From a virus (lineage: Duplodnaviria; Caudoviricetes), in the IMG/VR virus record IMGVR_UViG_3300011577_000001: DNA of 64,000 bases. One strand, written 5' to 3'. The notes under the pieces were generated by a model. It ran no database searches. It was not told the DNA's origin and saw nothing but the letters and a program-made list of their open reading frames with translations. The position numbers and the translations under genes were made by a program. Shown here piece by piece: positions 47,260 through 61,356 of this stretch. The first letter of the stretch is position 1. The number at the start of each line of letters is the position of its first letter.

Positions 47260-49278
47260 TTAGCGGTTCCAGGTCCCGGTGAAGGGAGAGCTGAACAGGC
47301 GCGAGCCTTGTTGCTGACCGCCACCGTAGTTGAAGAAGCCACCAACGTTGTTGGCAACCAGGTGGTTCAGGTCGTAGCCACCACGCTGAGTCAGGACGTT
47401 GTTATCGTCCAGGCCCTTGGCAGGACGCACGTTCAGACCGCAACGTACGATTGCTTCGGACAGCGCGTCCATGAAGGCGTTGTCGAACGACACGCGACGA
47501 GCGAAGCCCTTGACGTGGATTTCCGAGGCCAGGAGCTGGCGCAGGATTTCCTTGCGCTGAGCCAGGCGGATTTCCAGCGGGACCTGCACGTTGCGGTGGG
47601 TTTCTTCCCAGGCTTCGACCAGTTTCGGGTTGGTCTTGCCAGCCAGGTTGAGGATGGCCAGGTAGTCGATTTCACGCAGGTCACGACGATTGCCTTCGCG
47701 ATCGTAGTAGAAGCCCAGGTGGATGCGATCCTGATCGTCGTAGCAAACCGGCTTGGTCGCGTCGAACAGTTGCTGGAAGTGACCCATGGTCAGGTTGTTG
47801 GCCGCTTGCAGGATGGCCAGACGAGCGTTCTCGTCGCCGTTGGCGGCGGCGATGTAGGTCTGGTGAATCCAGGACAGCTCGCCAACCTCGGCGATGTCGA
47901 GGGTGAAGATCAGCTTCGGCGCGATCAGGGTGTTGATGAGCTGGCGCATTTCGTTGTCACCGAAGTCGGCGGAACGAGTCGGCAGTGCATCAGGCTTGGC
48001 GTTCGGGTCACCGGTCAGGTTGACTTCGTAGCCGACAGCACCCAGGTCTTTCAGATCGACGTCGGTAGCCTTGCCCTTGTTGGCGCGCCAGGTACCGGTG
48101 TACAGCGCGTTGCGGTTCAGACCGAAGGCGGTAGACAGGGTCAGCAGTTGCAGTTCCATGTTCACGGCGTCGGTCAGGGTGTCGACCGAGGTCATCACCA
48201 GACGCGGCTGGTACATCTGAGTCGCCATCATTTGCTGCTGGCCGAACATACCGAAGGCGTTCTGCTGCGGCTGGAAGCCCGCTTGTGCCGGTTGGTACAT
48301 CAGGTCAACGTACGCACCCACGCGGGTGAGCTGACGGGTTTGTTGCAGGCTGAACTGCGAGTCGGCTTGGGACTGCGCGGACATGGTGACGATGATGTCT
48401 TCACGTACCGGCATGCCAACCAGGTCTTCGCCGTGCTGACGAGTGAACTCGACACGCGCGCTCAGTTGGTCACCAGCGCCGACTTCGCCCAGGGTGAACG
48501 GCTCTTCGGTGCCGCCGAGCTGGTTGTCCATGATGGTGTAGCAGGCCTGGGTGCTGTTGTGCAGCAGGCGGTTGAAGCGGTTCTCGGTGCTGACTTCGGC
48601 TTCGGCCGGGATCACGATGCCACCGGCGTCGTGGACCTGAGCGTTCATGCCGTAGGTGTTGATGACGAACTGCTCCAGAACTTGCCAGTACGACTTGTTC
48701 AGGTAGATGTCACCCGGTACGATGTCGACTTCGACGGTGGTGCCGCCCAGGTTGACGCTGTTCGGGTCCAGCGGCGCACCGCTCGATTCGATCAGCATGC
48801 TGTAGACCGCGATGTGGTCTTGGCCCTGGAAGTTCTCGTGGTAGCAGACCAGGATGCTGGAGAAGGTCACCTTGGACTGGTTGTTGTCCAGTACCAGGAT
48901 GTTGAATTCCTTCTTCTGCTGTTCGGTCAGCACTTTGGCGGCGCGTTCTTTCAGACCGGTCTGGATGGTCTGCACGTCTTCGCCGGACATGTTACGAGGA
49001 ACCGGACGGCGGTGGTTGGCGTTGACGTCGAGGACCGAACGGCCACGGCTGCCGACGCGAGAGTTTTGCTGGTTCATCTGAGCACCTGCGTTGAAAGGTT
49101 GTTGCGGTTGAGCGTTACCGCCAGTCGGCTGTTGCTGACCACCGGCTGGTTGTTGTGCTTGCTGGGTCTGATCAGCACCCTGCGGATTGAGGCCTGCTTT
49201 CAGCATGGCTTCTGCCATTGCGCTGTTCGCAGGTTGGTTCGACTGGCTCTGGCCAGGTTGGTTACGTTTGACGGACAT
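47260..49278 (-). CDS. chmA: Chimallin (phage nuclear shell protein)
   Basis: About 672 aa directly upstream of the nvRNAP catalytic gene; Q-rich N-terminus, GMPVREDI, HLGFY...G..RDLREIDYLA; strongly biased codons; SD AAGGA. Confidence 0.88.
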   Translation of the reverse strand: MSVKRNQPGQSQSNQPANSAMAEAMLKAGLNPQGADQTQQAQQPAGGQQQPTGGNAQPQQPFNAGAQMNQQNSRVGSRGRSVLDVNANHRRPVPRNMSGEDVQTIQTGLKERAAKVLTEQQKKEFNILVLDNNQSKVTFSSILVCYHENFQGQDHIAVYSMLIESSGAPLDPNSVNLGGTTVEVDIVPGDIYLNKSYWQVLEQFVINTYGMNAQVHDAGGIVIPAEAEVSTENRFNRLLHNSTQACYTIMDNQLGGTEEPFTLGEVGAGDQLSARVEFTRQHGEDLVGMPVREDIIVTMSAQSQADSQFSLQQTRQLTRVGAYVDLMYQPAQAGFQPQQNAFGMFGQQQMMATQMYQPRLVMTSVDTLTDAVNMELQLLTLSTAFGLNRNALYTGTWRANKGKATDVDLKDLGAVGYEVNLTGDPNAKPDALPTRSADFGDNEMRQLINTLIAPKLIFTLDIAEVGELSWIHQTYIAAANGDENARLAILQAANNLTMGHFQQLFDATKPVCYDDQDRIHLGFYYDREGNRRDLREIDYLAILNLAGKTNPKLVEAWEETHRNVQVPLEIRLAQRKEILRQLLASEIHVKGFARRVSFDNAFMDALSEAIVRCGLNVRPAKGLDDNNVLTQRGGYDLNHLVANNVGGFFNYGGGQQQGSRLFSSPFTGTWNR

Positions 49279-49358
49279 CTCGTGTTCCTTTTCATTGGGG
49301 TTGAGCACTACGACACACCATTTGCCTATGCTCTATTTATTTACATTGGGCATGGTGT

Positions 49359-59546: not shown

Positions 59547-59622
59547 TGGTAGCACCAAGTGGGCTCGAACCACCGACCTCACCCTTATCAGGGGTGCGCT
59601 CTACCAACTGAGCTATAGCGCT
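59547..59622 (-). tRNA. trnI: tRNA-Ile(GAU)
   Basis: CACCC-CT-GAT-AA-GGGTG; CCA. Confidence 0.95.
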
Positions 59623-59629
59623 ATGAAAC

Positions 59630-60001
59630 TTAACCGCGACGGTTATAGTTGACGCGCTGGACTTCCAGCTCGACATACAATTCCATCGGGTATTGAGAAG
59701 GCAGTTCTACCGAGACACGCGCGATGGCAGTCTCAGGGTTGACGAATACCGCAAACGGAGCATTGGCGAAGGAGCCCAACACGCCTTGCATCTGGACACC
59801 ACGCTCGGTTTCGCTCTTGATCGGGCTGGTGATGTTGCAGGCAATGTCCACACCGTCAACGGTGGTGACACGCACTGCTTTCACCGACTCGATGGAGTCA
59901 GTACTGTCGAACTCTTCGGTCTGTGTAGCAATCAGACCAAACAGGTTGACTTGGCTAACCTTGAGCGGCAAACGAACGTGGTCAACAGGATACTTGTACA
60001 T
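59630..60001 (-). CDS. Stand-alone paralogue of the C-terminal domain of the Tad2 fusion
   Basis: VRLPL....NLFGL...T......DSIESV..V...TVDG and ELYVEL..NRR match the upstream gene. Confidence 0.75.
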   Translation of the reverse strand: MYKYPVDHVRLPLKVSQVNLFGLIATQTEEFDSTDSIESVKAVRVTTVDGVDIACNITSPIKSETERGVQMQGVLGSFANAPFAVFVNPETAIARVSVELPSQYPMELYVELEVQRVNYNRRG

Positions 60002-60010
60002 GACAGCCCC

Positions 60011-60646
60011 TTATTCAGAACGACGGTTGCGTTGGCCGTACTCGATGCGAAGAACCGCGAACAGCTCAACCGAATTCTCGGCAGCAGATGAACGCGTTGG
60101 CATGCAACCCCATTTCTGGGTGTCAACTTGGATGTTGACGTGTTGCTTACCGTTGAGGCGATCCGCAAAGGTCTTCAAGCGAGTCTCAGTACGGTGTCCC
60201 GGTACTTCGACGACGTTGCTCTTGACGACCAACCCATCAGCAGTCTCCAGGTGAACGACTTCCACCGAGAAGATAGCATCAGGACCCTCCAACACGGCGC
60301 CGGTTTCACCAGCCAACGTGAAGAGGTTTTGTTCAACGCCGTTCAAAGGAACGCGCACGTCAACCTTGGCAACGTAATCCTCAGCATCAAGGACTACCCA
60401 GTCGTCGGCAAGGATGTCGGACTGAGAAGCAACCCACGGGACAAAATCACCGTTGTGCGCTTTCAGACCCAGCCAAGGTCGCAGAGTCGGTGCAGGGTCC
60501 TTACGAACGTTGAGACCAACGGTGCGAGCACCCACGTCATAATGGCCAGAGCCAACCATGACGACCCACATGCCTTTACCGTTCCAGCCTTCGCGTGTGG
60601 CGCGAGAGCCATGCTTCAAAGCCGTAAGGGCTTGACCGAACTCCAT
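60011..60646 (-). CDS. tad2: Tad2/DUF2829 anti-defence sponge domain fused to a ~125-aa domain
   Basis: MEFGQALTALKHG.RATREGWNGKGMWV...PWVASQSDILADDW; SD CAGGAG before ATG 60646. Confidence 0.8.
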   Translation of the reverse strand: MEFGQALTALKHGSRATREGWNGKGMWVVMVGSGHYDVGARTVGLNVRKDPAPTLRPWLGLKAHNGDFVPWVASQSDILADDWVVLDAEDYVAKVDVRVPLNGVEQNLFTLAGETGAVLEGPDAIFSVEVVHLETADGLVVKSNVVEVPGHRTETRLKTFADRLNGKQHVNIQVDTQKWGCMPTRSSAAENSVELFAVLRIEYGQRNRRSE

Positions 60647-60667
60647 GTGAAGCTCCTGTTGTGAATG

Positions 60668-60753
60668 TGGCGGTGGGCGAAGGATTCGAACCTTCGGGGC
60701 CGCAACCCTCTCCCTTAGCAAGGGAGTGCGATAGACCGCTCTGCCAGCCCACC
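60668..60753 (-). tRNA. trnS: tRNA-Ser(GCU)
   Basis: CTCCC-TT-GCT-AA-GGGAG, variable arm, GCCA. Confidence 0.93.
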
Positions 60754-60776: not shown

Positions 60777-60853
60777 TGGCTGGGATAGTTGGGCTCGAAC
60801 CAACGACCTGGTGATTAACAGTCACCCGCTACTACCAACTGAGCTATATCCCA
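60777..60853 (-). tRNA. trnN: tRNA-Asn(GUU)
   Basis: GGTGA-CT-GTT-AA-TCACC; GCCA. Confidence 0.93.
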
Positions 60854-61356
60854 TTATAACGAATACCAAGAGCTACCCGACGAACCGTGTCTTTACCGAT
60901 TTCAAACTCCCGAGCAATTGCTCGATAGCTCATGGTACCGACCAGTTCAAGGATAGCCTTGACTGACTCTTCATCAAGCGCAGCATGTGGGCTGTCAAAC
61001 CCTTTCTTGCCTTCATACAAACCTAAGGCTTGCGCATGATCAATATTACCTTGATGCGTTACCCACTCCAAGTTATCCCACCGGTTATTTGTCTTATCCG
61101 TGTCCTTATGGTTCACGAAGGGAAGATTCAACGGGTTAGGGACAAAAGCCTTGGCCACTTGTACATGAGCCCTTAAACAGAACGACTTACCTTTCCTTCC
61201 TCCTATCTTGGAGGCGTGAGTAAGATAGCCATTATGGTTGGGCGTCAGTGCCAAATCTTGGAACGTGCGAATGCTAAACAGTGTCCCGAAATTGCCGATC
61301 ATGAAGAGATCAGGGTAGTCAGGACATTCCGTGAAGACTTCAAATTCATACGACAT
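60844..61356 (-). CDS. HNH homing endonuclease (I-HmuI-like, C-terminal HTH)
   Basis: HVQVAKAFVPN..FVNHKDTDKTNNRWDNLEWVT..N..HA; stop codon lies inside tRNA-Asn. Confidence 0.9.
   Translation of the reverse strand: MSYEFEVFTECPDYPDLFMIGNFGTLFSIRTFQDLALTPNHNGYLTHASKIGGRKGKSFCLRAHVQVAKAFVPNPLNLPFVNHKDTDKTNNRWDNLEWVTHQGNIDHAQALGLYEGKKGFDSPHAALDEESVKAILELVGTMSYRAIAREFEIGKDTVRRVALGIRYNGI

Follow-up and report, generated by a model that had tools for sequence, protein, structure and literature searches.

What does a small beta-sandwich domain do when it is attached to a phage-encoded signal sponge and repeated as the free-standing product of the next gene? The question is raised by two adjacent genes, A and B, at positions 59,630 to 60,646 of a 64,000-nucleotide stretch (hereafter the window) of the Caudoviricetes record IMGVR_UViG_3300011577_000001. 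Gene A encodes a Tad2 (DUF2829) domain followed by a domain that we call X, and gene B encodes X alone; the two copies are termed Xalpha and Xbeta, respectively. The analyses below indicate that X has the same fold as the insertion (I) domain of phiKZ-type major capsid proteins and is probably related to it by descent, and they lead us to favor, with a probability of about 0.4 on sequence and model evidence, the reading that a working sponge has acquired in X a module for protein association, through which a Tad2 tetramer would be extended by X-X contacts into a hetero-oligomer with gene B.

The N-terminal domain of gene A is a Tad2 sponge domain, as had been proposed in an original prediction made from the letters of the window. 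PF11195 (Tad2-like) matched residues 1-85 of gene A with an E-value of 1.9e-23 (83.2 bits compared to a cut-off of 25), and the solved Tad2 proteins ModTad2, SptTad2, HgmTad2 and SPO1 Tad2 matched gene A by sequence with E-values of 6e-16 to 5e-9. In HgmTad2, the residues that contact the glycocyclic ADP-ribose gcADPR are W21, N22, G23, W87, L88, S90, T92 and D93 (bioRxiv 10.1101/2023.11.15.567273). Residues W21, N22, G23, W71, V72, S74, S76 and D77 of gene A align to these contacts, and the gcADPR pocket is intact. The WNG and W-x-x-S-x-S/T-D motifs of the single-domain Tad2 proteins (SPO1 Gp34.65, 8sme; ModTad2, 8v3e/9eib; HgmTad2/AcrIIA7, 8kbi; SptTad2, 8wjd) are thus kept in gene A, which, unlike any of them, adds a 120-residue C-terminal domain.

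The original prediction had noted that Tad2 also sequesters some cyclic dinucleotides. The Tad2 subtype that binds them (HgmTad2, SptTad2) is defined by a 35-41-residue insertion between beta2 and beta5, plus R31, S47, F70 and N85. Between its two aligned segments, gene A leaves 25 residues unmatched (query 32-56), compared to 40 in HgmTad2 (chain 33-72); in the alignment, R31 of HgmTad2 is replaced by V31, and N85 falls in a gap. Because both the pocket residues for cyclic dinucleotides and the long insertion of HgmTad2 are absent, it is unlikely that gene A binds these molecules. With the gcADPR residues kept and the other pocket lacking, gene A is expected to be a sponge of the 3'cADPR (1''-3' gcADPR) type. 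Some Tad2 relatives bind N7-cADPR or cyclic UMP instead (bioRxiv 10.1101/2025.08.24.671296), so that 3'cADPR, or a close relative of it, is a presumed ligand.

The C-terminal domain of gene A is homologous to gene B. By BLASTP, residues 91-154 of gene A align with residues 2-66 of gene B at 34% identity (E = 6e-7). The small families of Xalpha and Xbeta match each other in hhalign with an E-value of 1.8e-7 and a probability of 93.8% over 110 aligned columns, which include the C-terminal NRR common to both. When distant members are included, X aligns almost without gaps for about 120 residues, beginning at VR.PL and ending in the C-terminal NRR, and the alignment contains invariant Asp/Thr/Asp residues and the terminal Arg-Arg. 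The resemblance between the end of gene A and the whole of gene B, which the original prediction had noticed, therefore reflects true paralogy. Neither residues 88-211 of gene A nor gene B matched any Pfam family at E-values up to 1, or any PHROG. Compared to two relatives, the ratios of nonsynonymous to synonymous substitution rates (dN/dS) are 0.02 and 0.08 for Tad2, 0.12 and 0.28 for Xalpha, and 0.12 and 0.12 for Xbeta. Given these ratios of 0.02-0.28, all three are under purifying selection and are maintained coding sequences.

The first structural model of gene B was mediocre, with a predicted local distance difference test (pLDDT) score of 74 and no clear match; its top viral look-alikes were small proteins of phiKZ-like phages. 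The model of Xalpha, made from a 16-sequence alignment of X sequences only and without templates, has the same strand order and is confident (pLDDT 87.7; predicted template modeling score 0.81). Among 48,161 solved chains, the four that best match the Xalpha model all belong to major capsid proteins, from jumbo or large myophages, and in each a single region is matched: S6 (7x30; score 7.7 over 103 positions; capsid residues 150-280), phiKZ gp120 (8y6v; 7.0 over 115; 250-467), phiKp24 (8bfl; 6.6 over 116; 91-311) and P1 (9ukm; 5.7 over 97; 196-311). These entries were released from December 2022 to October 2025. The next structural match scores 4.9, and a second alignment pass gave the same four leaders. 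In phiKZ gp120, residues 248-472 form the I domain, which grows out of the E-loop on the outside of the capsid, packs on the neighboring subunit and dimerizes with other I domains between capsomers (PMC11297242; Goslar preprint). The modeled fold of Xalpha superposes on this I domain, so that the likeness to phiKZ-type capsid proteins that the original prediction had put forward is borne out at the level of the fold. It should be noted that the structure-based identity between X and the capsid I domains is 11-15%, that X has about 120 residues, roughly half as many as the phiKZ I domain (about 225), and that the latter is embedded in the E-loop of a capsid protein with the HK97 fold, whereas X is fused to Tad2 or free-standing.

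Among predicted viral structures in BFVD, those closest to Xalpha are small proteins of phiKZ-like phages, including Phabio, Psa21, PS119XW, 201phi2-1, PhiPA3, PhiEaH1 and others, with Foldseek E-values of 1.6e-4 to 5e-3 and template modeling scores of up to 0.69. These Chimalliviridae proteins are similar in size to X, are 9-16% identical to it, and none has been reported with a Tad2 domain. As many small phiKZ-like proteins match the modeled fold of X, free I-domain-like modules seem to be common in this phage family, and they may constitute an unrecognized expanded family. The look-alikes include Phabio A0A1Y0SZ72, Psa21 A0A481W544, A0A481W6H9, A0A481W537 and A0A481W4T4, PS119XW A0A5C1K869, PhiPA3 gp366 and 201phi2-1 B3FJQ7; they are 100-190 amino acids long, occur several per genome and are uncharacterized; one carries the annotation virion structural protein.

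The IMG/VR virus record to which the window belongs is 240 kb long. The window encodes the nuclear-shell protein chimallin, split subunits of a multisubunit RNA polymerase and two DNA polymerase parts; in related contigs, a PhuZ/TubZ tubulin is found near the A-B locus. The major capsid protein of the phage itself, whose gene lies outside the window, has an identity of 44-45% with its counterparts in Xanthomonas jumbo phages and of 33-38% with those in Goslar-type and Erwinia jumbo phages. On account of the chimallin, the split RNA polymerase, the tubulin in relatives and the capsid relatedness, the source is an uncultured nucleus-forming jumbo phage. The A-B pair is kept in related chimallin-encoding jumbo phages of about 230-245 kb. 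One of the related contigs comes from sample SwRhRL2b, whose name suggests a rhizosphere metagenome, and homologues of the capsid protein are found in compost metagenomes.

This capsid protein also permits a comparison with X at the level of sequence. It contains APLAINVELNLLGL...DHTDAID at 271-304 and YDLKAARTNSNRR ending at 451; both stretches are preserved in phiKZ and in further relatives of solved structure, and the NRR stands at the C-terminal edge of the I domain. When the X profile was compared with an I-domain profile of 85 capsid homologues, X 3-120 aligned on capsid 265-453 with 24% identity (p = 0.009), and 2 of 250 column shuffles reached the score. The PL..NL.GL, D.TD.I and N.NRR motifs are colinear between X and the capsid protein (p ~0.01), and the most conserved residues of X are those that are also conserved in the capsid I domain. 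Comparison of gene B with the capsid protein by BLASTP brought no significant match (best E = 0.22, in the NRR segment), and global hhalign gave a poor alignment. The likeness to phiKZ-type capsid proteins that the original prediction saw in the PL..NL.GL..D.TD.I pattern is borne out by the fold, and the colinear motifs agree with it, although only at p ~0.01. Among the other open reading frames (ORFs) of the genome, the lowest hhalign p (0.0046) against the X profile belongs to a 139-amino-acid ORF outside the window, which could be a candidate I-domain-like small protein.

The capsid likeness might instead be a coincidence among generic beta-sandwiches, with X a passive extension of the sponge and gene B the remnant of a duplicated or recombined fusion. 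This would be in line with the first, weaker model of gene B, which gave no clear match, and with the lineages in which a free X is lacking. The four top structural matches, however, are one and the same capsid domain and cover the region of the motif alignment; Xalpha is under purifying selection; and gene B, with a dN/dS of 0.12 and 83-90% conservation, is present in every member of its clade. We regard a coincidence as improbable.

The distribution of X is narrow. Relatives of the X part of gene A are 54-97% identical, and all of them are Tad2 fusions in related jumbo-phage contigs. Gene B has close relatives only, which are 83-90% identical and in every member of the clade lie beside a Tad2-Xalpha gene. 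A two-subtype X profile searched against 1.84 billion representative proteins yielded eight matches; six are credible and are either Tad2-X fusions or free X beside one, and the other two are weak and lie in very long unrelated proteins. By tblastn, gene B is absent from 50,697 phage records, and no cultured phage in this set has X. The Tad2-X arrangement is so far confined to one clade of uncultured jumbo phages, and the combination of Tad2-Xalpha with free Xbeta is limited to the clade of the window. In more distant jumbo phages, one fusion, of the alpha or the beta kind, stands at the syntenic place, and the sequence covered contains no further copy.

Two subtypes of X can be distinguished: alpha, in gene A and the C-domains of P0015 and P0019, and beta, which comprises gene B together with the C-domains of P0016 and P0017 (44-47% identity to gene B). 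The Tad2 domain of the alpha fusion P0015 is 67-69% identical to the Tad2 domains of beta fusions, yet 58% identical to that of the window, and the Tad2 and X trees are incongruent. Moreover, the synonymous divergence (dS) from relative L004 is 1.28 for Xalpha, compared to 0.40 for the Tad2 segment and 0.68 for gene B. Taken together, the incongruent trees, the identities of the P0015 Tad2 and the excess dS of Xalpha in L004 indicate, at the level of sequence, that X modules are swapped as cassettes on a conserved sponge. The interchange of the subtypes and the faster divergence of Xalpha beside the near-invariant Tad2 are better in keeping with a variable protein as the partner of X than with an invariant small molecule. 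Protein P0017 (L013 5001-5870) is 289 amino acids long and carries an extra 77-residue N-terminal extension before Tad2-Xbeta; the extension has no Pfam match, and the protein is a three-part fusion.

A variable protein that such a module could face is the capsid itself or whatever senses it. X might thus be a mimic of the capsid surface, acting as a decoy for capsid sensors, or a docking module that tethers the sponge to capsomers or capsids. The I domain whose fold X has faces outward on the capsid, and the ThsB cyclases of Thoeris are activated by complex formation with major capsid proteins (PMC12578639), so that a capsid-like piece on an anti-Thoeris sponge would make functional sense. 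The fast divergence of Xalpha relative to Tad2 and the exchange of cassettes are also expected of a part that faces a variable protein. X is, however, only 11-15% (structure-based) or 24% (profile-profile) identical to the I domain and lacks much of its roughly 225 residues, which would make it a poor mimic of the present capsid, and the many small Chimalliviridae proteins with this fold suggest that it may be a common building block. A mimic or tether therefore appears doubtful to us. Equally speculative is the broader picture in which X would be a domesticated piece of the capsid surface, the pair would blunt sensing and mop up the signal on site, and the small I-domain-like proteins would be a hidden, expanded toolkit of nucleus-forming jumbo phages.

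The rival with the strongest precedent is that X is a second, new signal sponge, in which case Tad2-Xalpha would be two-headed like Acb4-Tad2, gene B a stand-alone sponge, and the range of sequestered signals wider. Fusions of Tad2 with Acb4 (PF13876) or Sequestin (PF21825) are common and block two defense systems, and one formerly unknown fusion partner of Tad2 proved to be a sponge (Tal et al., PMC12265669). In Alcaligenes phage vB_Af_QDWS595, the gene that follows Acb4-Tad2 contains another Acb4 domain. X is a small domain, probably oligomeric to judge by the weak support from complex prediction, and has the invariant Asp/Thr/Asp and terminal Arg-Arg; and the genome, which encodes a nicotinamide phosphoribosyltransferase (NAMPT), seems to face NAD-depleting defenses. 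Nevertheless, among the 1.84 billion representatives X is never found away from Tad2, whereas Sequestin is mostly stand-alone (PMC12265669). The top-conserved residues of X match those of the capsid I domain and look ancestral or structural rather than like a new pocket, and sequence searches with X in Pfam, PHROG and PDB matched no sponge. That we know of no sponge with an X-type beta-sandwich fold counts further against this explanation, which we consider unlikely, although it is the least so of the alternatives.

We therefore return to X as a protein-association module. Since the capsid I domain is a protein-protein contact module, we infer that X keeps this contact role and would bind proteins, not a ligand. 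Gene A would be the sponge that sequesters the 3'cADPR (1''-3' gcADPR) signal of the Thoeris Toll/interleukin-1 receptor (TIR) proteins, or a close relative of it; X would associate with itself and, in the clade of the window, with its co-translated free paralogue B; and the Tad2 tetramer would be incorporated in a larger Tad2-Xalpha/Xbeta hetero-oligomer. Complex prediction of Xalpha with Xbeta gave a score of 0.57, compared to 0.00 for the best control, with at least 88% of contacts agreeing between runs and a partner pLDDT of at least 84. Of 80 solved complexes, 58 attained the mark used for such predictions, as did 2 of 110 mismatched pairs; scores of 0.60 or less accounted for only seven of the 80 complexes and for both passing mismatches. 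Hetero-oligomerization of A and B through the shared domain, as proposed in the original prediction, is thus weakly supported by this one complex prediction.

Several points weigh against an association module. By the tool's own account, a score of 0.57 lies in a band where most passes are wrong if the pairing was not already probable. The partners to which Tad2 is known to be fused, Acb4 and Sequestin, are sponges (PMC12265669), and an N4-like phage has the layout in which the fusion partner recurs in the next gene with a sponge domain; both observations favor a second sponge. Some lineages carry a single fusion and no free X, which means that the free copy is not required. When the X profile was compared with the single ORFs of the genome, the capsid protein of the phage ranked third of 342, and a hidden Markov model search of the genome with the X profile returned A and B alone and missed the capsid gene. 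For these last two reasons, the sequence evidence for the capsid link is by itself no more than suggestive; it concurs with the structural match as to region and order.

The coordinates of the A-B locus and of other genes mentioned in the text are compiled in Table 1. The pair is embedded in a same-strand array of eight tRNA genes. The short A-B spacer with its Shine-Dalgarno-like run suggests coupled translation and stoichiometric co-production of A and B, and the pair is probably excised from the tRNA transcript and translated jointly. Simple promoter and terminator scans around the pair yielded nothing above shuffles.

Table 1. Features of the A-B locus and other genes discussed in the text (window coordinates, except for those prefixed G000:C1, which lie outside the window).
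Feature	Coordinates	Strand	Remarks
Gene A, Tad2-Xalpha fusion, 211 aa (P0001)	60011..60646	-	ATG at 60646, coding to 60014, TAA 60013-60011
Tad2 domain (DUF2829, PF11195), residues 1-87 of gene A	60386..60646	-	Pfam and structure-sequence matches
Xalpha, ~120-residue beta-sandwich domain, residues 92-211 of gene A	60014..60373	-	Capsid-insertion-domain-like fold (model)
Gene B, free-standing Xbeta, 123 aa (P0002)	59630..60001	-	ATG at 60001, coding to 59633, TAA 59632-59630
AGGAG ribosome-binding site of gene A	60653..60657	-	6 nt before gene A ATG; read from sequence
A-B spacer, 9 nt, with GGGG Shine-Dalgarno-like run	60002..60010	-	Read from sequence
tRNA-Ser(GCT), directly upstream of gene A	60668..60753	-	ARAGORN; 21 nt from tRNA end to ATG
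tRNA-Ile(GAT)	59547..59622	-	ARAGORN; begins 7 nt past gene B stop
tRNA-Asn(GTT)	60777..60853		Annotated
HNH endonuclease gene	60844..61356	-	PF13392 E 5.8e-9; phrog_59 E 4.6e-38
Chimallin gene	47260..49305
Major capsid protein gene	G000:C1:78800-80980
139-aa ORF	G000:C1:86480-86896	+	Lowest hhalign p among other ORFs
NAMPT gene, 654 aa (locus L025)	G000:C1:118228-120189	-	phrog_448 E 3.6e-174

In relatives, two small genes encoding 60 and 76 amino acids are found between gene B and tRNA-Ile (L004 5027-5456; L006 5030-5459), and the 60-amino-acid gene also follows the lone fusion gene of L009 and L013, which are more distant. Both are missing from the window, where gene B abuts tRNA-Ile (59623-59629 between them). 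On the other side of the pair, an HNH endonuclease gene is situated within the tRNA array and overlaps the annotated tRNA-Asn(GTT) by 10 nt. As no gene of this size is called at the matching place in relatives L004-L007, it looks like a recent insertion of a homing endonuclease. Elsewhere in the genome, the NAMPT is an enzyme of NAD salvage that could offset NAD depletion by Thoeris-type effectors and so provide a second line beside the Tad2 sponge.

Fused sponges are also found in phage QDWS595 (L003, OK149171.2; 1940-3055), in which gp05 is Acb4(PF13876)-Tad2 and gp06 is Acb4-Sequestin(PF21825). These adjacent genes, just upstream of the terminase genes, shuffle three sponge domains and are annotated in the record merely as a DUF2829 protein and a hypothetical protein. 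A tblastn match past Tad2 had made gp06 a candidate for a split form of X; this match was spurious (BLASTP E = 0.31), and the neighbor is Acb4-Sequestin. Like gene A, Acb4-Tad2 and Sequestin-Tad2 (PMC12265669) join Tad2 to another small phage-specific domain. In contrast to these partners, X matches neither PF13876 nor PF21825, lies C-terminal to Tad2, never occurs apart from Tad2 and resembles in its modeled beta-sandwich the capsid I domain.

Literature searches found no precedent for a Tad2-capsid fusion or a capsid decoy, and the pairing of Tad2 with a capsid I-domain-like partner and a free paralogue of that partner is new and not previously described. The sponges described so far consist of a single domain or of sponges fused to each other. 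Here, in every X-bearing lineage, a conserved Tad2 is tied to a swappable, faster-diverging domain that resembles an exposed knob of the capsid, and the capsid protein is the very molecule recently shown to be sensed by Thoeris cyclases. Were X to bind a nucleotide instead of a protein, a new sponge fold would have been found by the "guilt by fusion" rule. Should X prove to bind the capsid, its sensor or the paralogue B, this would reveal how phages can join the sequestration of signals to a function at the protein level. X also points to a family of uncharacterized I-domain-like small proteins in the Chimalliviridae.
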